From Candidatus Bathyarchaeota archaeon (GTDB taxonomy: Archaea > Thermoproteota > Bathyarchaeia > Bathyarchaeales > Bathycorpusculaceae), in the NCBI GenBank assembly GCA_963827165.1, contig CAWGZR010000005.1, positions 320,001-384,000 of the forward strand: a stretch of DNA of 64,000 bases, written 5' to 3'. Below the pieces are notes generated by a model. It saw only the letters and a program-made list of their open reading frames with translations. It was not told the DNA's origin and made no database searches. The translations under genes were made by a program, and so were the position numbers. This document shows, piece after piece, positions 16,765 to 32,512 of the stretch; position 1 is the stretch's first letter; every line of letters begins with the position of its first letter.

Positions 16765-17010
16765 ATGATGTTTATGAGAGAGTCAAGCTGGAGATTGTTT
16801 GGAGCTGCGTTAGCGGTTTTAGGGGTTGTCTTCCTGCTCGGGGGATTAGCGGCTTATTTGGGCGATCATCCGCAGTATGAGGCAGTTTTGACTGTCTTCG
16901 GCGGGATTTTCCTTGTTTTTGGCGCAGGCTTGGTTGTAATCACTTTCTTTGAGAAGGACAAAGGTGATGCAACAAACATTAAAGCACCAATGAAAAAGAA
17001 AAAATCGTAA
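16765..17010 (+). CDS. Small two-TM membrane protein
   Basis: Two hydrophobic helices and a basic tail. Confidence 0.65.
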   Translation: MMFMRESSWRLFGAALAVLGVVFLLGGLAAYLGDHPQYEAVLTVFGGIFLVFGAGLVVITFFEKDKGDATNIKAPMKKKKS

Positions 17011-17140
17011 TTGACAACTTACCAAAAAAAGGACAGGTATTTAGCTTGCTCTACAAAGCTAAATGGAATCTGCATTTTTCTCTTTCTGGAAATATTCTTG
17101 AGTGCCTTCGCTTTGCGGTCTGTTGAAAATCTTCTTTGTT

Positions 17141-17210
17141 TGTCAAGTATTGTCAATTTGTGTCAAATCAGGTCATTTTATGTCAATTCAGGTCAAATTG
17201 TGTCAAAAAA
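17141..17210 (+). repeat. 10-bp-period array A (7 units, KGTCAWnnnn)
   Basis: tgtcaagtat tgtcaatttg tgtcaaatca ggtcatttta tgtcaattca ggtcaaattg tgtcaaaaaa. Confidence 0.9.
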
Positions 17211-17219
17211 AGTATCAAC

Positions 17220-17276
17220 CTGCAAATGATTCGAGCTTCCAAACAAAAAAACAACCCAAAACACAAATGGAAAATC
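17220..17276 (+). promoter_or_regulatory. Conserved anchor motif, copy A
   Basis: CTGC AAATGATTCG AGCTTCCAAA CAAAAAA ACAA CCCAAAA CACAA; aligns without gaps to copies B-E. Confidence 0.75.
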
Positions 17277-17300
17277 ACAGCAAAATACTTCCGTCAGAAT

Positions 17301-17410
17301 CGAAGACTGTGAAGAACGGTAATGGACTTCTGTAGACGTTAAAGGACTTTGGGAGACGGTAAAGGACGGTGAAGGACGGCAAGGGACGGTAATGGACTTT
17401 TAGGGACGGA
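17301..17410 (+). repeat. 10-bp-period array B (11 units, nnnRGACKKn)
   Basis: cgaagactgt gaagaacggt aatggacttc tgtagacgtt aaaggacttt gggagacggt aaaggacggt gaaggacggc aagggacggt aatggacttt tagggacgga. Confidence 0.9.
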
Positions 17411-17412
17411 TG

Positions 17413-17470
17413 CTGCAGATAATCTAAGCCCCCATGCAAAAAAGCAATGCATTACACAAACAAAAAATTT
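17413..17470 (+). promoter_or_regulatory. Conserved anchor motif, copy B
   Basis: CTGC AGATAATCTA AGCCCCCATG CAAAAAA GCAA TGCATTA CACAA ACAAAAAAT. Confidence 0.8.
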
Positions 17471-17530
17471 CTCTACCAAAAAACGCGGACCCAACGCTAA
17501 CAAATCTGCGGTCCTATCTTATGATCTATT

Positions 17531-17600
17531 TTTGACTTTTTGAGATGTTTTGGGAGAATAGTTGCAACCGATCCAAGCCCCAAACCAGAAAAGCAACCAA
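17531..17600 (+). repeat. Short degenerate array C (3 units, GA every 10 bp) plus anchor motif copy C
   Basis: tttGActttt tgaGAtgttt tggGAgaata, then TTGC AACCGATCCA AGCCCCAAAC CAGAAAA GCAA from 17562. Confidence 0.65.
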
Positions 17601-17693
17601 AACGACTTGTTCAATGACGCCGACACAAAAACTTTTGCGCCAAAAAGACGCCAGCAAAATATCAAAGCTTAACAGACCCAAAAAAGGTTTGGG

Positions 17694-19634
17694 CTACTTT
17701 ATTATCCGAGTGTTGTAGGTTTTCAGGTACGTTTGGTGTTGTGAATCTTGCGGGTAGGTTTCGCTTGATGGGTATGGAAAGCTTGTCATGGTTTGGAACG
17801 GAAGCGGGTTAACAGTAAAGGGCACGTAGGGTAACCCGTTGCCTTTAAACCAGCAGTTGGCAACCACGAAGTAGTCTCTTACCCAGCCTTTTGGAACAGG
17901 AGGCAAATCCGCTAGAAACTGGATTGAAACTACGTCTCCTTGTCGCCCGATCACGAATTGGTTGTCAGTAGACTGCTCCAGCGACGTGACATCGCCGTAC
18001 TTTGTGAAAGCGCCGCTGGAAGTTGAGTTGGAACCGTATGCCTGAGACAAGACAGCTGATGAAGGCGTTAGGGTGTATACATTCATATCCTGCTGAGGCG
18101 ACGTGCTTACACCGATGTAATCGAATTGGAACAGTTGGTAATAGTTTATTCTGAGCATGAAATTGTTAGTTGGGAACAGCCCGGTCAAGTTCACGTCGAA
18201 GGTCTGGTCAGTAGTTGCGGGAATAGGAAATTCTCTATTCTCTGGAACGTTTACCCAGCTTCCGTTCGCAGCCATCACCTGCATGTACGGCGGCGGCGAA
18301 GGCATCACACCCGGCTTGTTGGCGTAACTCATAAAATTCTCGCCTCCTGCGCTGGTGCTTGGCCATTCAGTACGCGCCGCAACCACCAAGTCGATATTCG
18401 TTGCACCCGACAAATTACCGAGATTAAGCGTTAAGTTATTCCATGTCCACCTGTTGGCCGTGGTGAAAACTCCATCCAGCTTAGAGACTTGCGGAAGAAC
18501 GTTTTGTCCCTCCCCGTTGATCGCTGAAACCGGCGTCGAAAAGTGGTTGTTTAAAGAATAGATTGTTCCCTGACCAGAAAGGTCATTAACGAATGTGCTT
18601 TTGGTCGAGAAAACATCCGTACCAGCGGGGTGGTCCACAGCCAGCAGTTTAACCGAGTCCAAATAGAAGATTTCGTTTGTGTCTTCAGCGATTTGCATGT
18701 TATAAAACCCGTTGAGAGGCTGCAGCTGAGTTGAATCGAGCTTTATGTAATCATAGGGGTAATTGTAGGAGAAAACCATTGAGCCGTCAGGATTGAAGTA
18801 CTCGAGAAAACCTAACCAGCCCGTACCATCATTAACGTCTGCCGCGTAACTGTAACCGGTTCCGTTCCACGCGTAAAGTTCAGGGCACGAAGTCGGCGCT
18901 GTCCTCGCATAATTTCCGACTTCATAAGTTAAGCCTTCAACATCGAACGCTTGGGTAAGGCTAGTAGACCCACCGTTCCATCCTGAAAAGCCATAGGTAA
19001 CCAATCCCCATTCACTGCTTTCAACTTGCTGTGAAGCTGGAACGGTAATAGTATGGGTGCCAACAGGCACCAGACCTGAGAATCCAGCGGTATACGAGAC
19101 GCCATCCAAACTAAATTTGATCCCTGGTATGTTCATGATAACATTTAAAGTATGCATGCCAGTCGGAACTACGTTAAACGTGTTAGCTTGCCCTCCCCCA
19201 TTCAAATTGTAGCTTCCAACGGCGCTCTCGTTCAACAAGGCAGTTACATTCAAAATAGTGCCTCCTGCCATCTGAATGGGAACGCTTTGCACTATGGCAC
19301 CATTTACCGAGAAAGGAAACAGATAGCTGATGTTTCCGCTCCCTCGATTCCTTACTTCAACTGAAACGGTGATGGTTTGGTTAGGCCACGCTTCAATCGG
19401 GTTAATGAATAAATTTGAAACAGTAACCGAGCTGGGTAACGCGGTTGGCGGAGGGGCAGCCGTAGGTTTAGGAGGCGCAGAAGGAACAGCAGGCGTAGGC
19501 GAAGGCGCATGCGGTTGGGAACCAAAATAGTTGTTTTCGTAGAAATATGCAATGGCATCTCCTGCCGCGATCAAAATCAACACGACAATAATGGCCGCTT
19601 GAATCTTGTTAATTGCTAAACGTGAAGTATGAAT
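17694..19634 (-). CDS. Surface/secreted protein with a class III (pilin-like) signal peptide, Pro-rich linker, CARDB-like Ig domain and a large C-terminal beta domain
   Basis: RLA|INKIQAAIIVVLILIAAG; PSPTPAVP linker; ITVSVEVRNRG; TSCPELYAWNG; first canonical start is GTG 19583, with an in-frame ATT at 19634 after GGAGG. Confidence 0.8.
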   Translation of the reverse strand: MHTSRLAINKIQAAIIVVLILIAAGDAIAYFYENNYFGSQPHAPSPTPAVPSAPPKPTAAPPPTALPSSVTVSNLFINPIEAWPNQTITVSVEVRNRGSGNISYLFPFSVNGAIVQSVPIQMAGGTILNVTALLNESAVGSYNLNGGGQANTFNVVPTGMHTLNVIMNIPGIKFSLDGVSYTAGFSGLVPVGTHTITVPASQQVESSEWGLVTYGFSGWNGGSTSLTQAFDVEGLTYEVGNYARTAPTSCPELYAWNGTGYSYAADVNDGTGWLGFLEYFNPDGSMVFSYNYPYDYIKLDSTQLQPLNGFYNMQIAEDTNEIFYLDSVKLLAVDHPAGTDVFSTKSTFVNDLSGQGTIYSLNNHFSTPVSAINGEGQNVLPQVSKLDGVFTTANRWTWNNLTLNLGNLSGATNIDLVVAARTEWPSTSAGGENFMSYANKPGVMPSPPPYMQVMAANGSWVNVPENREFPIPATTDQTFDVNLTGLFPTNNFMLRINYYQLFQFDYIGVSTSPQQDMNVYTLTPSSAVLSQAYGSNSTSSGAFTKYGDVTSLEQSTDNQFVIGRQGDVVSIQFLADLPPVPKGWVRDYFVVANCWFKGNGLPYVPFTVNPLPFQTMTSFPYPSSETYPQDSQHQTYLKTYNTRIIK

Positions 19635-19837
19635 GAAATCGCCTCCAATAAATCCTCAACACAATGATTCAAAACTCCTCATTTTTGCTAAAATCAGTCC
19701 AAATCTGGGTTGTCGCAAAGTGCAATATCTTTTAAAGGAACAAGTACGATTTGTAGTTTACTATTTTACCCGGTAGCCAAATAAAACATAAAGGGTTACG
19801 AGTAGTTAAAAACGAGAATTCGGTTGAAAGTAAACGA

Positions 19838-20497
19838 ATGAAGAAGTTGAAGCTTTTGGCAATCTTAATTTCAATAGTTATTTTGTTTGCTTTGATCGTC
19901 AGATTTCAACCGTGGAGTCCACTAAGCGCAAACGAAGTAACACCAATTCGAGTGGCATGCGTCGGTGACAGCATAACCGCAATAACGGGATACCCCTCCG
20001 ACCTCCAATCATTGCTTGGCTCGGGATACACTGTCGGTAACTTCGGCGTCAACGGAACCACTGTTTTGCTTGATTCTTGGAATCCTTACATGAACCAGTC
20101 TGAATTCCAAAAAGCCTTAGATTTCAAGCCAAACATTGTCGTTATAATGCTGGGAACAAACGATGATCTACAGATGCTTCGTCCATCGAACACAAGCTTC
20201 GAAGAAGACTACACAAAACTCATCTGCGCGTTCCAGCAACTTGAAAGCAAGCCGAAAATCTGGATTGTTACGCCTCCGCCGATTTTCAGCAACAGCTCGG
20301 ACTTAAGCAACGCCTATTTCAAAGGGACGATAATTCCTAAAATCGAGGACTTAGCGCATAAGACGAATTTGCCGTTAATTGACGTATACGCGGCTTTCGG
20401 GAATCATTCGGATTATTTCGTGGATGGTGTCCATCCTAATAGTGAAGGGGCAGCTCTTATTGCATCGGAGGTTTATAAAGCTATAAACCAAAAATGA
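19838..20497 (+). CDS. Secreted SGNH/GDSL hydrolase
   Basis: GDSIT, GVNG, GTND and DGVHP blocks; N-terminal signal/TM. Confidence 0.92.
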   Translation: MKKLKLLAILISIVILFALIVRFQPWSPLSANEVTPIRVACVGDSITAITGYPSDLQSLLGSGYTVGNFGVNGTTVLLDSWNPYMNQSEFQKALDFKPNIVVIMLGTNDDLQMLRPSNTSFEEDYTKLICAFQQLESKPKIWIVTPPPIFSNSSDLSNAYFKGTIIPKIEDLAHKTNLPLIDVYAAFGNHSDYFVDGVHPNSEGAALIASEVYKAINQK

Positions 20498-20578
20498 CTC
20501 GGGGAGCCTGAGACTCTGCTTTGATAATCGCCAAGTTTTTACCTCTCCTCAGCGTATTATTACTTGAGGGTGTTGACC

Positions 20579-20788
20579 ATGGCTGTTCTTGAATGCCCTT
20601 TTTGTTACAAACCTTTTGAAGTTGAATCACCTGATAAATTTCATATGGCGTTTTCATCAGCAAAGCCGATCCGAAGTAGTTTTCATGGTGATGTCGTGAA
20701 AATTAAGGTTAAGTGCCCAAACTCAGAATGCAAGAGGACATTTACTGTTTTCTGGTATGCACCACTAGAATACTTTAACAGGGTATAA
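20579..20788 (+). CDS. Small Zn-ribbon protein
   Basis: CPFC ... CPNSEC; ATG at 20579 after GAGGGTG. Confidence 0.7.
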   Translation: MAVLECPFCYKPFEVESPDKFHMAFSSAKPIRSSFHGDVVKIKVKCPNSECKRTFTVFWYAPLEYFNRV

Positions 20789-21448
20789 CTGATGTAAATT
20801 TTCAAGCGAGAAAATCTTTGAGTGAAAAAAATATTATTGAATTTTGCTGCAGTAAAAATTAAGCAGGTTGGGTCTAAGCCTTAAGATGTTTCACGGCCCA
20901 TTGAAGCCATGTCCTTGTCGCTTCATGGTCTTTCACCGTTTTGACCACGTCACTCATAGCTCCACTGCTACATTGCTACGCCCAGCCCATTAAAGCAAAG
21001 TCTTTAGCGCATGCCAATTTTCCGCTGTTTTTATTGGCACACTCCTTGCTTCAATGCATTCGCATTTAAAGCGTGCTTCCCAACCTGCAAGATTACAATA
21101 GGCGTAGGTTTTATAAAACATATTTTTAACAGTCTTAAAGCAATAAACCATTGTTTAAGCATGTAAAAAAGTTCTTTTCTATCCAAACGATCGCTTATCA
21201 CTTGTAACTAATTCCAGTGTTCAGAAGAAGGAGGCTATCTGCTTTGACACAAACTGCGCAATTTAACATGAATAATGCAATTATTTCTAAAATTGAACGA
21301 AACGAGCGCCAGCCTGACGGGCTGTTCGCACGCGATCACGCCCAATACTGCAGGTTCCAAAACTTTTTATGCGACCACCAGATAAATGCAAAGTTTAAAA
21401 ATGCTCCTCTTCACTATTTGGTTCATTAAAACTTGCTGAGCGCTCTTC

Positions 21449-22141
21449 ATGTCTTTGATTCCAGAAGTATCTAACCCATTTCTGGCGGCGTTTGCTGGCG
21501 GATTACTCTATGGATTGGCTGTTTGCACTGCCTCATGCCTGCCCTATTTGGCAAGTTACATCGCGGGAGTTGGCGCGGGATTCCGCAGAAGCATAAAGAT
21601 AACGGCGATTTTTAATAGCGGCAGAATATTGGCTTACGCTTTGATCGGATCATTAGTCGGTTTGTTTAGTGGATTATTCAGGCTTGCCCTTTCTGGCTCA
21701 GCTACTTCGCCTTTCCAAACTTACTCAGCCATCGGATTCGGCGTTTTGTCCATAGCCATAGGTACAAGCATCATCATCAAATCAAGAGCCCCATGCGAAT
21801 GTACCCCCAAAGACACCAAAAAATTGGCGGAGCCAACCAAAATGGGCAGGTTCGGATTTGATTATAAAGCTTTCACGTTAGGCTTGGGCAGAGGGTTAAT
21901 TCTATGCCCGCCACTTGTGGCGCTTCTGGTTTATTCTCTGCCTTTTTCTACTCCACTGGGAAGCGTTGGGTTGGCAGTTTTGTTCGGCTTAGGAACCGCC
22001 CTCTCGCCTATGCTTTTGTTGGGAGGCGTTACGGGATGGCTTCTTAACAAGGCGCCATTGCTAAGAATGTGGATATCAATCGGCGGCGCAGCCGTACTAA
22101 TTCTGCTGGGGATAGTAGCGTTGGTTAATGCTTTAATTTGA
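21449..22141 (+). CDS. DsbD_2 / TauE-like membrane protein (cytochrome c biogenesis / thiol transfer family)
   Basis: CTASC, FNSGRILAY, LILCPP, FGLGT motifs; multiple TM helices. Confidence 0.8.
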   Translation: MSLIPEVSNPFLAAFAGGLLYGLAVCTASCLPYLASYIAGVGAGFRRSIKITAIFNSGRILAYALIGSLVGLFSGLFRLALSGSATSPFQTYSAIGFGVLSIAIGTSIIIKSRAPCECTPKDTKKLAEPTKMGRFGFDYKAFTLGLGRGLILCPPLVALLVYSLPFSTPLGSVGLAVLFGLGTALSPMLLLGGVTGWLLNKAPLLRMWISIGGAAVLILLGIVALVNALI

Positions 22142-22430
22142 TCCAAGAAGGCTGATCTGGAAATCGGTCGAAAGACAACAGCCGCTTAACGCTAGTTTTC
22201 GCAGTTGAAATAACTTTATTTTTATGTTGAAAGAGAAAATCAACAAACAATAGTTTGCAGGCTTCGATGTTGTTCTACCATATTTGAAGCCTCTGGTGTG
22301 TCTAGTCGGCTGGAAGGATAGATGAGATAAACGAACATGACCAAAGAAAGTTTTAGTATTTGTATCCAAAACTAACACAAGAATTGGTGCATAAAACAGC
22401 AAGAGGAAGCTAAGCAACTAAAAATGAGGT

Positions 22431-22661
22431 TTAGTAGAAGTTGCGTGCTTCTTTTCTTTTCTCTGCTTCCTCATAGAACCGCAGAACTTCATCGATTATT
22501 TCAACGTTTGATAGCAGCATGCGTCTGCAACAGTATCGTTTGATGCCGAGGCTGTCAAGGATGTCGCTGGCGTTTTCGCCTGTTTTGATTCGGCGCGTGA
22601 ACTCGTCCCATTGATCGCCGACCAGTTTGCCGCAGGTGAAACATCTAACGGGAATAATCAT
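22431..22661 (-). CDS. rpoN: RNA polymerase subunit N (Rpo10)
   Basis: [12 protein letters not shown]...RYCCRRML. Confidence 0.98.
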
Positions 22662-22670
22662 ATTTTTTCC

Positions 22671-23081
22671 TTACCTGTAACTCTTCTGTTCCTTGGACCG
22701 TGCGCCCGCTCCACCGACCTTTTTGGTTTCTTTAGCCCTGCTGTCACCGACAATCATTGTGCGATCGTATTCGCTAAAGACGGTTCGTAGATGAGTGCTT
22801 TTTGTCCACTTCAAAAGCGCGTTTGCAATGGATACTCTGGCTGCTTCTGCCTGACCCATGTAGCCTCCGCCGCTGGTTTGCACATCCATGTCTAGCTGTT
22901 CCCAGACTTCTTTGCCTGCCTGAAGCAGCGGCTCCATTATTTTTGCTTTCGCAACGTCGGGTTCGAAAATTTCAACAGGTGTCCTGTTTATCCGCACTTT
23001 CCCTATGCCTTGCTTAACTACGGCTCGGGCGACTGCGGTCTTTCTTTTTCCACTGACAACTAAAACTTTTTTCGCTGGCAT
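22671..23081 (-). CDS. rps9: 30S ribosomal protein S9
   Basis: GKRKTAVARA, GGGYMGQAEA, QKSYR. Confidence 0.98.
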   Translation of the reverse strand: MPAKKVLVVSGKRKTAVARAVVKQGIGKVRINRTPVEIFEPDVAKAKIMEPLLQAGKEVWEQLDMDVQTSGGGYMGQAEAARVSIANALLKWTKSTHLRTVFSEYDRTMIVGDSRAKETKKVGGAGARSKEQKSYR

Positions 23082-23083
23082 AA

Positions 23084-23536
23084 TTATTCACCTTTGCTCC
23101 AGCCTATTTCTTTCGCCATTTCTGCAAGGGTAAAATGTGGCCCTTTCAGGTTGGCAGATGAGGCTTCTTCAAATGTAATCATTTCTTTGCCTTTCAGTTC
23201 CAGTGGTACGCCCATGAAAACTTTGAGTCGTTTAAAAGCGGTTTTACCTCTAGGCTGCTTGAACGGAACCATGCCTCGCACGGTTTTACGCAGATATTTA
23301 TCTGGTCTACGATAATGAAATGGACCACGTTCAGGTGCGCCTACTTCAAGAAACTGTTTGGCTTCTGCAACTTTGCTTTTCTTTTTGCCTGAGAAAACGG
23401 CTTTCTCGGCGTTAAGAATGATAACCTCTTCTCCATTTAGGAGTCGTTTGGCAACTTTACTGCAAAGTCTGCCAACTATTAATCCTTCAGCGTTAACGAG
23501 AGTAACTGGAGTTTTTGTTGTTTGCATATTTCTCAC
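23084..23536 (-). CDS. rpl13: 50S ribosomal protein L13
   Basis: GLIVGRL, GPFHYRRP, TVRGM. Confidence 0.97.
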   Translation of the reverse strand: MRNMQTTKTPVTLVNAEGLIVGRLCSKVAKRLLNGEEVIILNAEKAVFSGKKKSKVAEAKQFLEVGAPERGPFHYRRPDKYLRKTVRGMVPFKQPRGKTAFKRLKVFMGVPLELKGKEMITFEEASSANLKGPHFTLAEMAKEIGWSKGE

Positions 23537-23895
23537 CGAATGATTTTGATGTTTGCACCCTTGGGATTTTTTTCTAAGAGTTCAGGAATGGAAAGGTATT
23601 TTCCTTTAGCGGCAACAAGTTTTGCTTTGGCTTTCTCAGAAACACCAAATGAAGCGATCGTTAACGAGTGGTTTATGCTGCCGGATCCCAAGATTTTGCC
23701 TGGAACAACCACTGTTTCAGCGCGTTTTGTGTTCCTGTTTATCGTGCTCAAATTAACTGAGATGCGGTGACTGCGTGTTTTGGAAAGGTATTCTGCAATA
23801 TCTAGCCAGATAGCTGCTTGTTTTTCTTTGCTTTCTTTCTTGAGCAAATCGATAAGTTGGATTAATTCGGGATTTGTTGATTTTGACTCTTTCAT
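23533..23895 (-). CDS. rpl18e: 50S ribosomal protein L18e
   Basis: STNPEL, VNLSTINR, VVVPGKILGSG. Confidence 0.97.
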   Translation of the reverse strand: MKESKSTNPELIQLIDLLKKESKEKQAAIWLDIAEYLSKTRSHRISVNLSTINRNTKRAETVVVPGKILGSGSINHSLTIASFGVSEKAKAKLVAAKGKYLSIPELLEKNPKGANIKIIR

Positions 23896-24719
23896 TGCGA
23901 TTCAGCCTTTAACAATTCTTCAATTTCATTTAGTTCTTTACCTAACGTTTTTGTGGCTTCTTGGAGGATTCGTTCTGGAGGAAGCGCACCTGTTGACTCG
24001 ATAGTCATTATGAACGCGTTCTTTTCCCATTCAATCTTAAGTGGTGAAGGCTTCTTGGGGCAAGCTTCAACGCAATCCATGCAGAGGTTACAGGCCAAAA
24101 GATCCCTGACATCAACTTTGTCATCTTTAACCGCCAGCACCTTTTTGGGGCAGACGTCGGCGCATTTCGCGCAGTCTTCGCATTTTTCTGCGGGGGCAGT
24201 TATCTTTGGATAGTACTTGTATACGCACATTGAAACGGGCTGCCACTTTGCATGGACTTTGCCTCTTCCCAAACGTGCATAAGCTTCAAGCTTGAGTTTC
24301 TGGTTTTTGGCAAGCTTGATTATCGGTATTTTATCTGACACTGGAATAATTTCTGGGTTTTCAGATACGATTTCACCTGAGTAAACCGTTCTGGTTCCTT
24401 CTTTGGCTTCTGCGTCAATCGTGAGTGTCACTCGACATTGGGGGCAGCCAAATTCACTTTGGCATTCACATTCTTCAGGAAGGTTATAAGCATCTAAATC
24501 GGTTTTTAGGGGTGTGAGACCTAACCTGTGAGCGATTATTTCATCCTGCAAAATAGAGCTGTTCTCAATCATAACGACTTCTTCGATCGCCATTGTTGGT
24601 ACTTCAGCAAGCGCTATGCGACGCAGAGCGTTCATTAGCGGAACATCCGCATCTCTTATGATTATGCGGAGGTTGATATCGTTTTTTTCAAGGATTTCCA
24701 TTTTCACTTGCTGAGACAC
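23892..24719 (-). CDS. rpoD: RNA polymerase subunit D (Rpo3) with a ferredoxin-like Fe-S domain
   Basis: NALRRIALAEVP, AHRLGLTPL, HAKWQP; two CxxCxxCxxxCP motifs. Confidence 0.97.
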   Translation of the reverse strand: MSQQVKMEILEKNDINLRIIIRDADVPLMNALRRIALAEVPTMAIEEVVMIENSSILQDEIIAHRLGLTPLKTDLDAYNLPEECECQSEFGCPQCRVTLTIDAEAKEGTRTVYSGEIVSENPEIIPVSDKIPIIKLAKNQKLKLEAYARLGRGKVHAKWQPVSMCVYKYYPKITAPAEKCEDCAKCADVCPKKVLAVKDDKVDVRDLLACNLCMDCVEACPKKPSPLKIEWEKNAFIMTIESTGALPPERILQEATKTLGKELNEIEELLKAESQ

Positions 24720-24810
24720 TCCAATAAAGTTACCGTAATATGTGTTGCGTTCAATAGAGATATGGGTGCATTATTTCAATTTTTCTGTCAATAAAGAAGG
24801 GAAACTGAGT

Positions 24811-25215
24811 TTAGACTCTTCTTCCTCTTCTGCCGCCGGGTCTTCTTGTGCCGTCATGGGGTATTGGTGTGACTTCTTCGATGCGTTCAATACGGAACCC
24901 AAACCTTGCCAATGCACGAATGGCTGCTTGGGCGCCTGGACCAGGGGTTCTTGGTCCGCTGCCTCCAGGGGCTCGGACTTTGATGTGAATAGCGGTTATG
25001 CCTTTGTCTCGGGCTACTTCAGCTGCGCCAGTTGCCGCTCGCATCGCAGCGTATGGTGATGATTCCATGCGATCTGCTTTGACGAACATGCCGCCACTTG
25101 TTCGGGCGATTGTTTCGGCACCTGAAATGTCAGTGATGTGTATTAGCGTGTTGTTGTATGAGCTGAATATGTGCACGATTGCCCATTTGTCGTTTCTTTT
25201 GCTGTTGGCGCTCAG
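24811..25215 (-). CDS. rps11: 30S ribosomal protein S11 (probable CTG start overlapping the rps4 stop)
   Basis: [40 protein letters not shown]. Confidence 0.97.
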
Positions 25216-25802
25216 AATCTGCCGCCTCCTCTTCCGCCTCTTCTGCCGCGTTGTGGCTGCCTAATTTCAACCTGCTTGGCGACGACTGTTAAGCCCGCGC
25301 GTAATGGGTGTGCTTGGTTTGCTACGGCGCTTTCAGGTGAATAAATAATTTTGGGTTCATCGAGTTTTGCAACCATGTAACCGGGTATTGTTACTCGGCG
25401 GTTGTCAATGGTTACGTGTCCATGCGTGATTAATTGGCGTGATTGGAAGACGGTTCTAGCTAAGCCTTTTCGGAAAACTATGGTTTGAAGTCTACGCTCC
25501 AAAATGTCTTCTATAGTTAAGTCTAAAACGTTGTCTAAAACTGCGGTTTCTTGCAGGATTCCGATTTTCTTTAGTTTTGTTAGCAATTCATTTTCCATTT
25601 TTGCTCGTTCTTCGGGAGTTTTGCTGATAAGTGATCGGGCGATGCCTCTGGTTTTAGATAAGGTTGTTTTGTGACGCCAAAGTTCATGCTTGTTGCGCAG
25701 ACCGTACTGACCCAGGAGTTTAAGTTCTTCCTGGAGGATGTCTTTGCGCCAGCGGAACCTTGGCGTATCGAACTTTTTACGTTGCTTCTTTGGATCACCC
25801 AT
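25212..25802 (-). CDS. rps4: 30S ribosomal protein S4
   Basis: [35 protein letters not shown]. Confidence 0.98.
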
Positions 25803-25804
25803 AA

Positions 25805-26296
25805 TTATTTGCCTCCTTCGGCAGGTGCAGCTCCGCCGGGTTTCTGCAAGAGTGTCTTCTTCTTGACGCCTAAAGCTTTGCCTGCTCTTCCAGTGGTTTT
25901 CGTGTGTTGACCACGGACTTTAAGGCTGTATGCATGGCGGTATCCACGCCAAGACCTGATGTTTTTAGCGTCATCAATATCTTGTTTTGTCCTTAAAACC
26001 AAATCAGCGCTTAAAAGATGCATGTCTTTTCCTGACTCAGAATCTTTTCGCCTGTTAAAAAGCCAAATCGGAATGCTGTACTTTGCCGGCTCCTTAATAA
26101 CATTCTCAATCTTTGATATGTCCGACTCTGTAAGGAAACCCACTCGCAGATCAGGATTCACTTCTGCCTTCTTCAAAATTGCGTTTGAAAGGCTCATGCT
26201 AACGCCTTTTATCTGTGCGATAGCGTAAGAAGTCTTAAGGGTACCTGGAACGTCTGTACCCATAATGCGAAGTATATAACGATATTCCTGTGACAT
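25805..26296 (-). CDS. rps13: 30S ribosomal protein S13
   Basis: IPIWLFNRRKD, SWRGYRH, KVRGQHTKTTGR. Confidence 0.98.
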   Translation of the reverse strand: MSQEYRYILRIMGTDVPGTLKTSYAIAQIKGVSMSLSNAILKKAEVNPDLRVGFLTESDISKIENVIKEPAKYSIPIWLFNRRKDSESGKDMHLLSADLVLRTKQDIDDAKNIRSWRGYRHAYSLKVRGQHTKTTGRAGKALGVKKKTLLQKPGGAAPAEGGK

Positions 26297-26412
26297 GCTA
26301 AATTTTCATCCGTTTTTTACATTGAAAGCATATACGAAATGAGACAGTGTTTATTTAAACCTTTTTGACTCGAAAAACTTAACTGAGGTTTAGGCACGGA
26401 AATCCTGTGAAA

Positions 26413-28723
26413 TCAATATTGGTCTTTTTCATCTGCCACTTCCTCCAGCCGAGTTGTCTTTGGATCAGTTAACCGAGCTGATTGGTCACCGGTTTGGTCG
26501 CTTGCAAGTTTTTTCTTTCGCCTGCTCTGATAATAAATCGCTGCCGACAAAACGGCAGCGCCTGTGACTGCTGAGCCGACCGCTATGGGAAGAGCATCTG
26601 AAGCGGGAGTCGTCACTTTGTAGGGACGCATCATCTCGTTATCCTCGTGCTCCAGGAGATGGCAATGCCAAACGTATCCTGGTCCCGCAGTTGCGTCGAA
26701 TGGAAAGCCTGTCCCGTCTTGCTGTGCAAATCGCACTCGGAGGGTTACAACTTCACCCGAGTTTACTATAATCGTGTCTTTCCAGCATTGCTCTTCCGGC
26801 TGAGGTTGACTTATGGTTGTGTTTAGGAAGGATGAGAGTGATTGAACGTTTTTTGTCGGGTGATTAAAAGGCGGCAGCCCGTTGATTCTTAGCCATTCGT
26901 CTGTATATGATCCCGCCGCACCCAATGTTTGTCGCTGGACAAGTTGAAACTGCACTAGATGAATGTGAATAGGGTGAGCGTCCATAGTTGGGTTAACTAT
27001 TACCCAATCCTCGGTTGCTCCTAACTCAGGCATTTCTGAGGTTGATGCATCCCAAGTTTGCCCGTCTAAGAAGGGCTTCAACAGTCGTTCCGTTTGAATC
27101 GGCAATCTCATAAAGCGTCAAAGTTCGATGCTTTATCGGTTTGGGTAACGTAGGAAAAGCGGATCCTGCAAGCGTGGGATTGAATGGATTTGGTGCTGAA
27201 CCGATACTAAAGGGCGCGATTCCTAGTGCGTCGTTGGCTGTGAACTGCATTACCTCGCCCTCGGTTGTGGATGGTGAAAGCAATGCGGTGTTTTGAAGGA
27301 TGACCTTTTCGCCTGGAGCGAGATTGGAGAAGTCAACTATTACATCCGCGCGTTCAGCAGGTGCTAGGGATAATGAGGTCACGGAGACCGGCGCCCTCAT
27401 GTAACCGCCGTCACTTCCAATCTGGATGAAGGTCATAGCGTTTGAGAAAGCGAGGGCATAGAATCGTGTGTTTGACCCATTTAAGAATCTAAGGCGATAT
27501 TGTCCTCTATCAACATTCATATTGGGCCATGCTTTGCCGTTTACCATTATCACGTTACCTATGAAATTGTTAACCCAGTACGGATGCGTGTCAGTTGCTG
27601 AACCGACCGATGGGTAGCTTAAAGAGCCGTCGCTGTTGAAGGTTCTGTCTTGAATCACTAAAGGCATCTCGTATTTTCCAGCGGGCAACTTGGCAGCAAC
27701 CTGGTCGGCGCCGACGGGTTCTCTTATCAGGTAGAAACCTGCAAGCCCAGACAGCACATTTAGTCTGGTGACACCTAAGGCGTGATCGTGGTACCACAAG
27801 GTCGTTGGCTGCTGCGAATTAGGATAATAGTATACAGCGGCGTTTGAAGAGGTCTTTTCAGCCGTGTAATATGTTTGGCCATGCTTTCCGTCTGATGTGA
27901 ACCATTGGTTTGGTCCTCCATCAGAGTAGGATTGGTTTTCTCCTCCATGGAGATGAGTTACAAGCGGAACCAGAGATTGTGCGTTTGGATAACCGGGAGG
28001 ATATGCGGGAAAAGGCGCAGCGGGCATCGAGTTGTTGCTGGGGTTGGCCCAGTGGATGGTGGGGTCGACTGAAAACATATACGAGGATGTGATGTTGTTT
28101 TGCCACTGAACTTGAATTGGGATACCTCTCACGGCTTCAAAAGTGGGTCCAGGCGTGGTTTGAATGGAGCCTAATGATGCCCCAGTTATTGCATCAGTGG
28201 CTGAACCCGCATAACCCCAAACCGGAGTAAGCAGGTTCATGGAGGGGGGAAGGATTTGTTGATTAAAGCTTTCCATGCTTACTGCGTAGTCATGTCGAAT
28301 AACTTTACCTTGATTTGTTACGATGTTAGGTTGGTAAACAGGCGGTGGACCGACCAGCTGATTCTCGAATTGTGGAATCATAAGAGGATCAAGAGAAGAC
28401 AAGCCAGCGCGGGCTGCACCAGGGGATTCCATTTGTGCGATTAGCCGTTTTGAAGGATTAAGAAGTTGATTTGTCGTCGATGCAAAAGCCAAAGGTTTCA
28501 GAGAATCTGATAAGAAAATCGCAGTTAACCCAGCGCCTGCTGTTAGAGCGGTCAATTTCAAGAATTCCCTCCGATTCAACCCTTGATGGCCCACCGCCGC
28601 AATCCCAGCCTCTTTGGCCGTTGAAGAAGATACAGGTCTACCATTAGAATCTGAATCCGCTGACTCAATTGCTGATCGTTTTTTGAATTGGAAACTTCGA
28701 TAACTCAATCGTCGATTCACCAT
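26413..28723 (-). CDS. Multicopper oxidase (CotA/bilirubin-oxidase-like) with Tat signal and C-terminal TM anchor; one indel near 27070
   Basis: NRREFLK Tat motif; HLHGG, WYHDH, HPIHIH and WHCHLLEHEDNEMM copper motifs across two frames. Confidence 0.9.
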
Positions 28724-28900
28724 TTTAGCACGAAAAAATGTTTGAATCAGGTTGTGCTCTCAAGGTTGAGAGAACCGAGTTGTTTTAAGAACGTTTGTGA
28801 CTGTATAGTAACATCAACAACTTTTCGTAGAGTTGGATAAATTTGTTTTTTGGGGCGAAACCTAAATACTTTCATTGCAAGCTTTAAACTGAAGAGAATA

Positions 28901-29155
28901 ATGGACCTCATAACAGTCATCGGTTTGGTCGCCGCGGCGTTCACTACGATTGCTCTTGTTCCGCAGTTGATGAAAGTATGGAAAACCAAGTCAACCAAAG
29001 ACATTTCGACAGGGATGTTTACGCTTTATTGCGGTGGCGTATTTTTGTGGTTTGTATACGGGACTTACATAGGCGACTTGCCCATCATACTCGCTAATTC
29101 TTTAGCATTTGTCCAAGCGCTTGCAATCCTGATTTTCAAGGCAAAATACAAGTAG
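28901..29155 (+). CDS. SemiSWEET / PQ-loop transporter
   Basis: TTIALVPQLMKVWKTKSTKDIS; three TM helices. Confidence 0.9.
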   Translation: MDLITVIGLVAAAFTTIALVPQLMKVWKTKSTKDISTGMFTLYCGGVFLWFVYGTYIGDLPIILANSLAFVQALAILIFKAKYK

Positions 29156-29164
29156 CAACATAGT

Positions 29165-29431
29165 TTAAGCTTCGCTAACCACGTCAATAACGTTCAGTGC
29201 TGTGCTTATCCACCTTAAATAAGCGTTCAAAGTCGCCCGCAACGCAACGGTGTCCTCAGCATCAACCGCCAAAACAATAGACAAGCCATTAGCCTCAAGT
29301 GTCACCGAAGCGCGTCTAGACACATTACCTTTGGCTTCAGGGTCAAGTGCCTTTAGAAGCGTTGCCAATTGCTCTTGAGATCGGAGTTTTAACCGGATGA
29401 TGGCTTTGGCTCTCGCTGACAGGAGGAACAC
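29165..29431 (-). CDS. pcc1: KEOPS complex subunit Pcc1
   Basis: ALDPE...AEDTVALRATLNAYLRWI. Confidence 0.9.
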   Translation of the reverse strand: MFLLSARAKAIIRLKLRSQEQLATLLKALDPEAKGNVSRRASVTLEANGLSIVLAVDAEDTVALRATLNAYLRWISTALNVIDVVSEA

Positions 29432-29789
29432 CTATATCTAAATTGCAGCTTCAAAGTTATAAACGAGCCCAAACCAAAATTACTTAGGTTACATCCAGGA
29501 TTAATTTTTGGCGTAAAAATTCGCTACAGCTCTAAACGACCTTTTTTGGTTCTCAAGCATATCGGGGAAGGACTTCTGTGTTTCTCAGCATCATAATATT
29601 TACGAGGCTGACTTTCCCATGTCAAGATCAAATCGCGGGTCATCGCTTTAAGAAGTAATTTGTTAAAAGAAGTGGAATGCGAAGGCGCCTTTAAGGTTCA
29701 TTATGAATTTGCTTCGAGTTATTAAATTCTGTTAGCACCCTTCTACATTTATTCGTGATGGGAAATACTGAAGTTTCTGTTTCTAAAGA

Positions 29790-30554
29790 GTGCCCGTTTG
29801 GGAAAGCCAAAAATTATGGATTCTGAAAAGCCTTATAGCCAAAAGAAATTATTATTATGGATTTGTGGGAGGGCCAAGCGGCATTTATAGAAAAAGCTTT
29901 GCATGTGGAATTTCCATAGCTGCATTAATTCTCACTTTGATGTGGGTTTGCCCAAACACGTCGGCACAGACCAACTCAGTATTTGGGCCCGCCACCAAAT
30001 TCAGAGTTCCGGCCTACAATGGTGTCATCAGCTTTGCAACAAACGGAAGCTACATGTCAGCCACATTTGCGGATAATACTTGGACCTTTAAGAACCTCCG
30101 CCTTAACGGGTCACAACCGCTAGATAACCTTGAAATTTCAACTGAAAATTCTAGCGTCACGATAAACTCTTACCAGACTGTAACCTTTGGTTTTCCAAGT
30201 GAATTCCTGAACATTTCAGTTCAAGGCAAAGGGCAGCAAGTCATTAACATGGGCGTGGGCGCCTTTTCGGGAACCAATGTGGATTGGGTTGTTGCCTCCA
30301 ATGTCACCTTTCTGAACAGCGGTTGGAGCGTATCGCATAACGGAACGGTAACTTTAACGGGGTTAACTGGAAACCTAAACATTATTTACTTCAATTTCAC
30401 GAGCCAAATAGGATCTTCCAACCTACCATTCTATAAGGCCCATTCAGTCGCGATCGCGGTAACGATCGGGGTAATTGCAACTTTTGGTGCTGCCGTGGTT
30501 GTTCGGGTTGCAGTCAGAAAGCGTACAGGAACGGTGCGGGGTGGGCAAGCATGA
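29790..30554 (+). CDS. Secreted beta-rich protein with a C-terminal TM anchor (true start probably downstream of 29790)
   Basis: Signal-like segment, Asn/Thr/Ser-rich body, TM plus RKR; stop overlaps the next gene. Confidence 0.65.
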   Translation: MPVWESQKLWILKSLIAKRNYYYGFVGGPSGIYRKSFACGISIAALILTLMWVCPNTSAQTNSVFGPATKFRVPAYNGVISFATNGSYMSATFADNTWTFKNLRLNGSQPLDNLEISTENSSVTINSYQTVTFGFPSEFLNISVQGKGQQVINMGVGAFSGTNVDWVVASNVTFLNSGWSVSHNGTVTLTGLTGNLNIIYFNFTSQIGSSNLPFYKAHSVAIAVTIGVIATFGAAVVVRVAVRKRTGTVRGGQA

Positions 30555-31774
30555 CATGGACGACCCCAAGCTACATAGTGCTTCCGATCTACGTTGCAAT
30601 AGTGGTCATCGGAATCTTGCTTATCTACAAGTTGACCAAAGACAAAACCAAGAACATAAGCTCTCTTAGGCTCTTCGTTCAAATCGCAGCCGTCTTCGCG
30701 CTTTTCATGGGCCTAATCTTAGGTCCCTTCGATGTCCCCCTTTACTCACCCCTGGGAATTGCGCCCAGGAGCTTATTGCTAGGTGGCAATCTGCTGGGAA
30801 ATCAGTTCCCCGACGGCATTTCCTTCCCAGTCTTAGCTTGTTACTACCCCAACGGACGAACTGTCACATGTCCAATCTGGCAGATTCAAGCATATATTTT
30901 CCCATTTTGGAATTACGCAAGAGGCTACGATGTAGTTTACTCAACGTCTGGTCTTGAGAAAATTGGCATAGTCATCGGCCTAGTCGCGATTGCTGCCATA
31001 ATTGCAGGCAGATTTTTCTGCGGTTGGCTTTGTCCCTTCGGCCTCTATCAGGACGTGTTGACACGTGTACGTAAGGCAACTAGGCTCAAGCACCTGACTT
31101 TTTCTGAGAAAACAAACAGAGCGCTAGCGCAATCAAGATGGATCATAATCGCTGTTTTCCTCATCCTCAGCGTCATGTTTGCGTCATACGAGATTTTCGG
31201 TCACCAGTTGATTCCAGGCACGACGCCTGGCGGACCCGAAGGAACGGAGGCAGGCAACGTCGGCTTCCTTAACGAGCCATTCTGCCTGGTTTGCCCCATG
31301 CGCCCGCTCTGCGTTTTGATTGAATGCGCTGTAGGCTCCATGAAGCTCTCTTACGTGTCCCAGATCATATATGGACCGCTAGCGATTCGCGGAGGCTACA
31401 TTTCATCCATAAACATCGCAGTTCTAATCGCAATAACAGCTTTAGCTTTAGCATACAGACGGTTTTTCTGCAGAATCTGTCCTTTGGGCGCCCTAACAGC
31501 AGCGTTCAGTGCTTACACCCCGTTCAGGCAAATCGCAATTACCAAGTTGGAGAAGAACGAGGAGAAATGCACCAAATGCGGTGTCTGTAAACGAGTCTGC
31601 CCAACCCAAGCCACAGACGTTTACGAGAAGAAAGGCGGCGACGTAACAGAATCCAGATGCATCCTATGTGCACGGTGTGTTGAAGCATGCCCATATGAGG
31701 ATGCGTTGGCTTTGAAAGTAGCGGGGCAAACTGTGATGCACTCAAGAAACTGGCTGGAAAAAGAATCTTCTTGA
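30551..31774 (+). CDS. NapH/MauN-like membrane polyferredoxin (4Fe-4S binding)
   Basis: GRFFCGWLCPFG, RRFFCRICPLG and two CxxCxxCxxxCP motifs. Confidence 0.88.
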   Translation: MTWTTPSYIVLPIYVAIVVIGILLIYKLTKDKTKNISSLRLFVQIAAVFALFMGLILGPFDVPLYSPLGIAPRSLLLGGNLLGNQFPDGISFPVLACYYPNGRTVTCPIWQIQAYIFPFWNYARGYDVVYSTSGLEKIGIVIGLVAIAAIIAGRFFCGWLCPFGLYQDVLTRVRKATRLKHLTFSEKTNRALAQSRWIIIAVFLILSVMFASYEIFGHQLIPGTTPGGPEGTEAGNVGFLNEPFCLVCPMRPLCVLIECAVGSMKLSYVSQIIYGPLAIRGGYISSINIAVLIAITALALAYRRFFCRICPLGALTAAFSAYTPFRQIAITKLEKNEEKCTKCGVCKRVCPTQATDVYEKKGGDVTESRCILCARCVEACPYEDALALKVAGQTVMHSRNWLEKESS

Positions 31775-31850
31775 GAGGGAATTAGCGTTTTTCTCACCCT
31801 TGTTGGCCAATGGGATCTTTGACTTTAATGTTAAATGACGGTGGTCGCTT

Positions 31851-31950
31851 GTTGACTTTTGTTGACGTTAGTTGACTTTAGTAGACTTTTATTGACTTTA
31901 GTTGACTTTTGTTGACTATTGTTGACTTTGGTAGACTTTAGTTGACGCAA
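31851..31950 (+). repeat. 10-bp-period array D (10 units, GTWGACTTTW)
   Basis: gttgactttt gttgacgtta gttgacttta gtagactttt attgacttta gttgactttt gttgactatt gttgactttg gtagacttta gttgacgcaa. Confidence 0.95.
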
Positions 31951-31951
31951 C

Positions 31952-32010
31952 CTGCAGACAATTCAAGCCCTAAACCAAAAAAGCAATCCAAAACACAAAC
32001 GAAAAAAATC
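31952..32010 (+). promoter_or_regulatory. Conserved anchor motif, copy D
   Basis: CTGC AGACAATTCA AGCCCTAAAC CAAAAAA GCAA TCCAAAA CACAA ACGAAAAAAAT. Confidence 0.8.
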
Positions 32011-32070
32011 TGCGAAAATCCCGAAACCGCCACGACCCACATCTCTTCTTTACACTGTTAAACCTACATT

Positions 32071-32152
32071 GTCTTTTCTACCCTTTTATAGCGTCTTCTA
32101 GCGTTTTTTAGCGTTTTCTAGCTGAAAATAGCGTTTTATAGCATATTCTAGC
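32071..32152 (+). repeat. 10-bp-period array E (about 8 units, GCGTTTTMTA; TAGC every 10 bp)
   Basis: gtcttttcta cccttttata gcgtcttcta gcgtttttta gcgttttcta gctgaaaata gcgttttata gcatattcta gc. Confidence 0.9.
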
Positions 32153-32158
32153 TTCCAG

Positions 32159-32217
32159 TTGCAAGAGATACTAACCCCAAACTAAGAAAGCAATCTGTTT
32201 CACAACCAAAAAATTTG
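32159..32217 (+). promoter_or_regulatory. Conserved anchor motif, copy E
   Basis: TTGC AAGAGATACT AACCCCAAAC TAAGAAA GCAA TCTGTTT CACAA CCAAAAAAT. Confidence 0.75.
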
Positions 32218-32251
32218 TTCCGCAATCACGACGGCATGTGTCCACAGGTGC

Positions 32252-32512
32252 TCAAGCATCTTCGGGTTGATTAATCCAAACTTTGACTTTATCCTGCACC
32301 CTGACTCTCGCCTCTGTCTGCATCAACCGAACCTGCCCCTGAACTATCCTGTCATCAGTAGTGCAGAATTCCTTTCTTACGGCGTCCTCAAGCTTGGGCA
32401 CGTTGATGTGTTCAGCAGAGCCGACTTGGTTCCAGAATTTCATCTGTATCTTTATTCTTTTCTTTCGCGCTTCAGAATCCGAGTCTTTAGTCATCAAAGT
32501 TACCTTGCGCAA
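32252..32512 (-). CDS. Small basic protein, putative winged-helix DNA-binding protein (ATG at 32494 is an alternative start)
   Basis: Three predicted helices then a beta-hairpin (VRLMQTEARVRVQDKVKVWI); Arg/Lys-rich; TATA-like TTAATATA upstream at 32648-32641. Confidence 0.6.
   Translation of the reverse strand: MRKVTLMTKDSDSEARKKRIKIQMKFWNQVGSAEHINVPKLEDAVRKEFCTTDDRIVQGQVRLMQTEARVRVQDKVKVWINQPEDA

Follow-up and report, generated by a model that had tools for sequence, protein, structure and literature searches.

The modules of the window

The 64,000-nucleotide stretch considered here (G000:C5:320001-384000, called the window below) belongs to a source assembly of 3.13 Mb in 14 contigs, 94.5% complete, whose small-subunit rRNA is archaeal (RF01959, 1483 bits). 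Five modules lie in it at two loci, each made of an array of 10-bp units followed by a conserved anchor. They look like copies, lacking the gene, of a non-coding cassette that occurs across one archaeal genus and is linked there to the gene of a 92-amino-acid protein with a predicted DNA-binding fold. The initial annotation of this DNA had placed the five anchor starts at 17220, 17413, 17562, 31952 and 32159 and had aligned the anchors without gaps across YTGC-N27-RCAA; both the positions and the alignment hold. The modules are dissected part by part in Table 1.

Table 1. Parts of the five modules (window coordinates)
Feature	Position	Strand	Description
Array 1	17142..17211	+	7 in-phase 10-bp units GTCAAnnnnn, core GTCAA
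Junction unit and anchor 1	17212..17285	+	junction unit GTATCAACC; TGCA at 17221
Array 2	17305..17404	+	10 in-phase units GACGGTAAAG or GACTTTnnnG, core GACGG/GACTT
Junction unit and anchor 2	17405..17478	+	junction unit GACGGATGC; TGCA at 17414
Inter-module leader	17479..17523	+	AAAAACGCGGACCCA..CTGCGGTC..; recurs ahead of same-class arrays elsewhere in the genome (by eye)
Array 3	17524..17553	+	weak, only 2-3 units (GACTTTTTGA, GATGTTTTGG), GACTT/GATGT
Junction unit and anchor 3	17554..17622	+	junction unit GAGAATAGT; TGCA at 17563
Array 4	31854..31943	+	9 in-phase units GACTTTAGTT/GACGTTAGTT
Junction unit and anchor 4	31944..32018	+	junction unit GACGCAACC; TGCA at 31953
Inter-module CT-rich leader	32019..32070	+	..CTCTTCTTTACACTGTT..; related to the CT-rich motif after anchors in other modules and species (by eye)
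Array 5	32071..32150	+	8 in-phase units GCGTTTTCTA-like, core GCGTT/GCATA (TAGCG in the register of the initial annotation)
Junction unit and anchor 5	32151..32225	+	junction unit GCTTCCAGT; TGCA at 32160

Tandem Repeats Finder reported a period of 10 at four of the five window arrays. The class to which array 3 belongs has four to five units in its other copies in the genome. The arrays are also carried by contigs from two independent studies: record 8 of X1 corresponds to 31843-32491 with no differences, and records 10, 11 and 16 of X2 reproduce 16891-17225, 17309-17898 and 31859-32500. They are therefore not an artefact of assembly, an explanation that the initial annotation had kept in mind.

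Phased arrays throughout the genome

Phase-locked 10-bp modules are by no means limited to the window. A profile made of the five window anchors retrieved 82 sites of the genome at E<0.05 (nhmmer), and one iteration raised this number to 93 at E<1e-3, as compared with none at E<1 in the reversed genome. The statistics given below for the source genome are taken over 92 of these 93 anchors, with units counted in steps of ten backward from TGCA, each unit beginning with the phased G. The exact TGCA is present in 63 of the 92 modules, and a G is found at positions -9, -19 and so on to -69 from its T in 93, 87, 78, 80, 75, 72 and 60% of them, respectively. Over the 80 nt upstream of the anchors, identity at lag 10 has a mean of 0.58, against 0.26 for 3000 random 80-mers. 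At least three consecutive in-phase units precede 74 of the 92 anchors, compared with 181 of 5000 random positions (3.6%), and at least five precede 58, compared with 5 of 5000 (0.1%). Anchors elsewhere in the genome do thus come with phased arrays.

The converse relation was also observed. Period 10 is the commonest tandem-repeat period of the genome (80 of 350 loci), and an anchor lies within 40 nt at 61 of the 70 loci with a period of 10, 20 or 30. Among the remaining nine, three have degenerate anchors and most of the other six resemble intragenic repeats, so that 10-bp arrays do not appear as a rule independently of the anchor. The 92 modules fall into 64 clusters (44 single, 13 double, 6 triple and 1 quadruple) and the arrays into about 12 unit classes, all of which fit one meta-unit: a 3-5-nt core starting from the phased G, then a T-rich spacer. 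With units of 10 nt and variable parts of 5-7 nt, they are far from clustered regularly interspaced short palindromic repeats (CRISPR), which have repeats of about 24-48 nt and unique spacers of similar size; the absence of CRISPR-sized spacers had already been remarked upon in the initial annotation.

The T-tracts that follow the core are themselves phased at 10 bp, since T occupies positions -14 and -13 in 88% and 79% of the modules, and likewise in the earlier units. Such phasing is what would be expected if the arrays were architectural DNA acting mainly by its shape, as intrinsically bent segments, histone-positioning sequences or parC-type sites that pair like centromeres. A single histone gene is present in the genome, and parC of plasmid R1 is a set of direct repeats around a promoter, helically phased as here, which is cooperatively bound by a small autoregulating protein, ParR. 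This explanation nevertheless looks quite improbable. Shape alone needs no class-specific core, whereas cores of 3-5 nt are conserved within the arrays and across species. No partition ATPase or other partition NTPase, and no operon for a centromere-binding protein, was found among 65 neighbour genes of 29 module loci, nor beside the small genes described below at 10 loci, and the 64 clusters are scattered over the chromosome, regional clustering being not significant (P 0.12). The fold of the associated protein also differs from the ribbon-helix-helix fold of ParR. Nothing specific was thus found in favour of the centromere or chromatin organiser that had been put forward initially.

A family of small genes linked to the cassette

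The cassette is linked to a family of genes coding for the 92-amino-acid protein. The source genome has seven of them, five of which are those at G000:C7:3043-3333, C1:49642-49920, C10:65800-66078, C10:79782-80192 and C10:89725-90003. Of the seven, six have a module on their 5' side at E<1e-3, on the opposite strand, with the array adjoining the start codon; only a weak anchor-like hit (E 0.19) was obtained for the seventh. The family was found in 36 of 61 genomes of the genus, with 1-11 copies each. In the loci fetched from these genomes, 85 gene-upstream pairs could be considered: an anchor is detected at E<10 in 83 and at E<=0.01 in 73, array and anchor being divergent from the gene, and at least three in-phase units are present in 61 of the 71 distinct pairs. 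More than 20 different cores are found in these gene-linked arrays, including GACTA, GACTT, GACGA, GTCGC, AACGC, GGCGC, CACAA and CACAT, as well as TGCA, ATCTT, ACCTT, CCCT, TACTT, GTCTA, GCTTA and GAGAA.

The distribution of the anchor follows that of the gene. A sequence-only covariance model built from 63 anchors matches 73 of 101 genomes of the genus. Copy numbers start at 0 and go up to at least 49, and many genomes are at or near this upper figure. In the rest of the order, only 1 of 138 genomes is matched, through two partial hits (E<=1e-5, stricter filters). Anchors are present in all 35 other genomes that have the gene; among the 25 genomes lacking it, 19 have none and 6 have between one and six. 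This pattern is to be taken as co-occurrence and not as a test, because the genomes are kin.

Four of the window arrays resemble gene-linked arrays of the source genome or of a related one when compared by eye. Array 4 belongs to the class of the array ahead of the family gene G000:C7:3043-3333; array 3 resembles that of the gene at C10:65800 of the same genome; for array 2, the similar array is the one linked to a C7-like protein of G340. Array 5 matches, by eye, another array of G340, of a subfamily not found beside any array of the source genome, and array 1 (GTCAA) is, in the same comparison, without clear cognate among the gene-linked arrays.

Some variants of this arrangement deserve mention. 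In G311:C1:7626-10973, three family genes stand in tandem with a spacing of about 1.5 kb, and their anchors match the model weakly (E ~1); they may form a divergent subfamily with a different upstream element. In two congeners, at loci L042, L045 and L050 of G187 and L032 of G283 (locus positions ~1330-1600), the anchor core lies inside a dispersed C/A-rich repeat of about 300 nt, in which several AAAGTCGCAAC boxes at about 11/22-nt spacing replace the 10-bp array. This may be a sister form of the cassette; the anchor model has at least 44 matches in G187.

Fold of the 92-residue protein

The profile of 24 family members matches the Protein Data Bank entry 2GLW (E 6.2e-5, residues 8-73 of 92), whereas the AbrB regulators 5ITM and 2L66 reach only E ~0.6-0.7. 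An AlphaFold model of a family protein (predicted local distance difference test 85.7, predicted template modelling score 0.75) has the same entry as its top Foldseek match, with a template modelling (TM) score of 0.74, E 8.8e-5, a probability of 1.00 and 23% identity. PG0164 comes next, then MraZ, including DNA-bound forms (TMq 0.45-0.47, probability 0.97-1.00). According to the available part of PMC4333400, 2GLW is PhS018 from Pyrococcus horikoshii, which is related to the swapped-hairpin AbrB barrel and made of a single chain; it is described there as uncharacterised and with no DNA target named. The 92-residue protein thus models as a PhS018-like, single-chain AbrB-fold barrel, and DNA binding is predicted from this fold. 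PhS018 is also archaeal, also has 92 residues, and is the best match both by profile and by fold, although the sequence identity is low.

The unit core as a possible specificity code

If the protein binds the array, the core would be expected to vary with the protein, and this is what the comparison between species suggests. When the core labels are placed on a tree of 61 proteins, 32 changes are required, against 43.4 after shuffling, and none of 200 shuffles was as low. Several clades keep one core: ATCT in four genomes, (G/A)ACTT in eight rows from six genomes, and a clade of eight rows with xxCG. Between arrays, core identity is 0.46 at a protein identity of 20-35% and climbs to 0.82 above 70%, whereas spacer identity rises only above 70%. 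The association shows, at the level of sequence, co-inheritance together with a constraint on the core, which behaves like a putative specificity code of one paralog.

The initial annotation had imagined a common factor binding the anchor and nucleating a protein filament along one helix face, with the unit as a code. Its code is supported by the clustering of the cores on the protein tree and by the position of array and anchor upstream of AbrB-fold genes across the genus, and a protein array on one helix face also finds support; the common nucleating factor bound to the anchor found no support.

The anchor, a candidate control element

A promoter matrix was learned from 591 upstream regions of the source genome (consensus AAARSYTTWWAT). 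Among 72 anchors of a genus set, 50% have on the reverse strand, at +4 to +19, a CAAAGCTTAAATTGTT-like site that scores above the 99th percentile of random 16-mers. This site encloses the AT at +9/10 and the ARC at +14-16 that had been singled out earlier as shared positions. It points into the array and is preceded on the same strand by runs of T6 and T7. A second promoter-like site, proximal to the gene, lies about 46 nt before the ATG and passes the same threshold in 49% of cases. Because the matrix site is directed toward the array and follows the T6/T7 runs, the anchor can be read as a terminator followed by a promoter-like element, that is, as a putative control element shared by all the cassettes.

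The anchor was also inspected for other properties. No conserved RNA structure was found on either strand; the hairpin GCTTTT..AAAAGC of some anchors was discarded, as it is not kept in the commoner GCCCC type and, by eye, has no two-sided covariation. Coding by the reverse strand was rejected as well: the frame is open because of an A-poor composition, yet variants change GLG to AEK and the like (by eye). No conserved open reading frame was found after the anchor. In columns ~55-62 of alignment A3, many anchors of other species carry CTGAACA or CTGTTCA after CCCAAAACA; TGAACA and TGTTCA are mutual reverse complements and look like a flipped half-site.

A promoter-like site pointing into the array raises the question of whether the module is a small non-coding RNA gene, with its promoter in the anchor, a transcribed array and an end at the next T-run, its product serving for example as a protein sponge. 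The strand asymmetry is strong, with C and A abundant in the anchor and G, T and A in the array; in tandem clusters, each unit is delimited by T6/T7 runs (by eye), and the first T5 run downstream of the anchor comes at a median of 186 nt, against 303 nt at random positions. We consider this possibility improbable, since neither strand yields a consensus structure (alifold energy 0; minimum free energy z ~-0.6), the region ahead of the class 4 arrays has no consistent fold, and Rfam 15 gives no match at gathering score in the window, its single hit at E<=1 being a chance one (E 0.94). In addition, the partner protein has a DNA-binding fold, and exact 10-bp phasing is the geometry of B-DNA, not of RNA.

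The same matrix bears on another explanation, in which the arrays would be tandem TFB-recognition element (BRE)/TATA boxes that recruit TBP and TFB or titrate them, with the choice of the TFB paralog set by the unit. Units such as AGCTTAAAATA and GGACTTTAAAG do resemble the tRNA promoters of the genome, which has two TBP and five TFB genes, and in the gene-linked set the spacer closest to the anchor has a higher A/T content than the one preceding it (0.83 vs 0.74, P 0.005). When scored with the promoter matrix of the genome itself, however, the arrays stay below a mean of 2 at every position, many classes of other species have G/C-rich units, such as GTCGCAGAAA and AACGGGAAAA, and the link to an AbrB-fold gene would be left unexplained. 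Such a role seems very improbable.

A multi-box operator model

The reading that we favour, with moderate confidence, is that the arrays are multi-box operators of the MraZ kind, in which the core is a paralog-specific code and the anchor a shared control element. The module would then be a compact non-coding control cassette, whose conserved form stands divergently upstream of the gene of the PhS018-like protein. The 10-bp array would be the multi-box operator of this protein, with one protomer per helical turn, all on one face of the DNA, and the phased T- or A-tracts should bend the operator, in parallel with MraZ on its four GTG(G/T) boxes. The 3-5-nt core would be the recognition code of one paralog, which would explain why each array has its own unit while period and phase are common to all. 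The anchor would be the control element that the paralogs have in common, its helical phase being constant; terminator-like T6/T7 runs and, after them, a BRE/TATA-like GCTTAAAT site would lie on its array-facing strand, so that the first boxes would cover the region where RNA polymerase is recruited. The gene-less modules most likely still bind paralogs made elsewhere, as extra regulated promoters or as decoy sites.

The comparison with MraZ rests on the layout. As described in the available part of PMC12957436, MraZ binds four GTG(G/T) boxes that have 6-nt spacers between them, upstream of its own promoter, cooperatively and with an opened oligomer ring. The boxes follow one another in direct orientation at exactly one helical turn (4 nt of core and 6 nt of spacer), and stand upstream of the gene of a regulator that belongs to the AbrB/MazE/MraZ superfamily and has two half-domains per chain; DNA-bound MraZ is also the next fold match after PhS018 and PG0164. 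Direct boxes about 10 bp apart are found likewise in 74 of the 92 modules of the source genome and in 61 of the 71 gene-linked arrays. A site upstream of the regulator's own gene is found for the gene-linked cassettes (73 of 85 pairs), and not for the five window modules. Cooperative, oligomer-assisted binding with one protomer per box belongs to MraZ itself, and is predicted here by analogy. The differences are no less clear: the present protein has 92 residues, without the helical oligomerisation part of MraZ; the arrays have 4-11 boxes instead of four, and more than 20 paralog-matched cores instead of one conserved box; a conserved anchor of about 60 nt is attached to them, and there are dozens of gene-less copies per genome; the host is archaeal and the context of the bacterial dcw cluster (genes for division and the cell wall) is missing.

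Several observations weigh against the operator model. The family remains below the cut-off of the Pfam MraZ profile (PF02381), with a best E of 0.084 and hits in only 2 of the 24 members, and PF04014 (MazE_antitoxin/SpoVT-AbrB) matches none of the 24 at E<=1; PF04014 finds 26 other matches in the source genome, none of which is one of the seven family genes. The promoter-like site of the anchor is weak in the source genome itself, with a mean score below 2 and 23% of anchors above the 99th percentile. Sister proteins also differ in core, and the association on the tree is no proof of recognition, because gene and array are neighbours and are inherited together. The classes GTCAA and GCGTT/GCATA, and arguably GACGG, have no family gene bearing a like array in this 94.5%-complete assembly. 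More generally, 86 of the 92 modules of the genome, all five of the window included, are not directly beside a family gene, and 17 of the 20 top-scoring anchors sampled from six other genomes lack a family gene in the nearest 550 nt, so that gene-less cassettes appear to be the rule of the genus and not a quirk of the source genome. Finally, the orientation of the clusters is random: the neighbours on the array side run the same way in 34 cases and the opposite way in 30, those on the anchor side in 31 and 33. As a rule, then, the gene-less copies do not serve as promoters for the genes next to them.

Gene-less copies and their origin

The gene-less modules are surrounded by genes of all kinds, among them those for FKBP, glutamate dehydrogenase, Trm1, thioredoxin, FEN1, PyrI and GcvH. 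Their clusters are found in convergent (18), divergent (15), tandem co-oriented (16) and tandem anti-oriented (15) settings. Four of the 64 clusters are near tRNA genes against 1.0 expected, with P ~0.03 before any correction for intergenic placement. Of the 20 anchors mentioned above from other genomes, 17 carry at least three in-phase units (by eye), and anchors largely outnumber genes, with at least 49 anchors for 11 genes in G314 and at least 49 for 9 in G332. Searches for remnants of the family gene beside gene-less modules remained negative: tblastn of the genome gives none beyond the seven genes, and blastn with the C7 unit gives no similarity past the array, that is, none to the gene body. 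At L172, L176, L177 and L180-L182, a conserved TTTTAGGGACAAAC-like motif lies at the far end of many gene-less arrays of other species; it also appears as TTTAAGGACACAAAC near some modules of the source genome.

As to how the copies arose, anchors of the same class are more alike than those of different classes (0.733 vs 0.650; reached in 0 of 500 shuffles), and same-class copies arrange their unit variants in the same order and are alike over about 110 nt of flanking sequence. Whole cassettes have therefore been duplicated. This could mean that the gene-less modules are a selfish, non-autonomous dispersed repeat, comparable to miniature inverted-repeat transposable elements (MITEs), BOX or repetitive extragenic palindromic (REP) elements, derived from gene-linked cassettes and without host function of its own. 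The shared variant order and flank, the covariation of anchors with array class, the seemingly random position and orientation, the unrelated housekeeping neighbours and a copy number varying from none to at least 49 within one genus would all agree with such an origin. In the same direction, nine congeners have orthologues of the neighbouring gene for a 629-amino-acid protein of the window, without an anchor within 1.5 kb; these orthologues have no flanking genes in common and the congeners are too distant for an empty-site comparison.

A selfish repeat seems unlikely in view of other features. There are no consistent terminal inverted repeats, no excess of folding energy and no transposase among the 65 neighbour genes of the 29 module loci; no target duplications are visible in the class 4 alignment, and no match was found in phages, plasmids or viral contigs. 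The cores are intact in 74 of 92 arrays, and the anchor is conserved between species whose orthologous proteins are 55-66% identical, which argues for constraint. A selfish origin is in any case compatible with binding of the protein.

A further, tentative reading is that of a multi-channel DNA address code, in which single-chain AbrB-fold proteins would read more than 20 paralog-specific arrays of 10-bp boxes, with tens of gene-less cassettes in each genome as programmable landing pads, or of a protein-assisted mobile promoter-operator cassette of a new kind. The landing pads would wire unrelated loci, or short non-coding transcripts, to tiny regulators. We regard this as doubtful.

Three other features of the window can be mentioned here. 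The 629-residue protein (17694-19583, minus strand) has no Pfam family and is conserved in 27 of 31 genomes of the genus, many with more than one match. The C-terminal part of a 383-residue protein (13332-14483, plus strand) weakly matches the TIR domain of the CAP12/Pycsar effector (E 1.7e-4, 22.1 bits vs a 24.7-bit cut-off), and the gene of this protein is a possible defence gene. At 22670-24224, contigs of X1 and X3 join 22690 to 24202, thereby skipping 1511 nt, with loose ends at 22670 and 24224; the segment holds small minus-strand open reading frames, and some strains may lack or replace it.

Known systems and significance

Small AbrB-type factors and antitoxins, such as AbrB, MazE, VapB and Sso7c4, autoregulate their own promoter. 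The 92-residue protein shares their fold superfamily and small size, and the same autoregulation is predicted for it, whereas these factors are dimers of half-barrels acting on loosely defined or palindromic sites. Pneumococcal BOX elements, REP and bacterial interspersed mosaic elements, and MITEs are intergenic, present in tens of copies, and modular with a variable number of internal subunits. The modules resemble them in all these respects and in a copy number that varies between relatives; they differ by the lack of inverted repeats or hairpins, by their strict 10-bp phasing and class-specific cores, and by the conserved link to the gene of a DNA-binding protein. The initial annotation had recognised no described family. 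Its statement has to be qualified for the layout, which is that of the 10-bp-spaced boxes of MraZ (PMC12957436); it stands for the archaeal family and the gene-less copies, on which our literature search of main texts found no publication.

If the operator model is true, these cassettes would represent naturally occurring repressor-operator pairs, orthogonal to each other, that all follow a single simple rule of one short core in each helical turn. They would illustrate how specificity diversifies in a minimal DNA-binding fold and in its own operator at the same time. The gene-less copies, for their part, could constitute a regulon or serve for titration; they could also form a family of short transcription units or be dispersed repeats of a new class. 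Under the operator model, PhS018-like proteins would gain a function, and this uncultured archaeal lineage its first proposed regulatory circuit.

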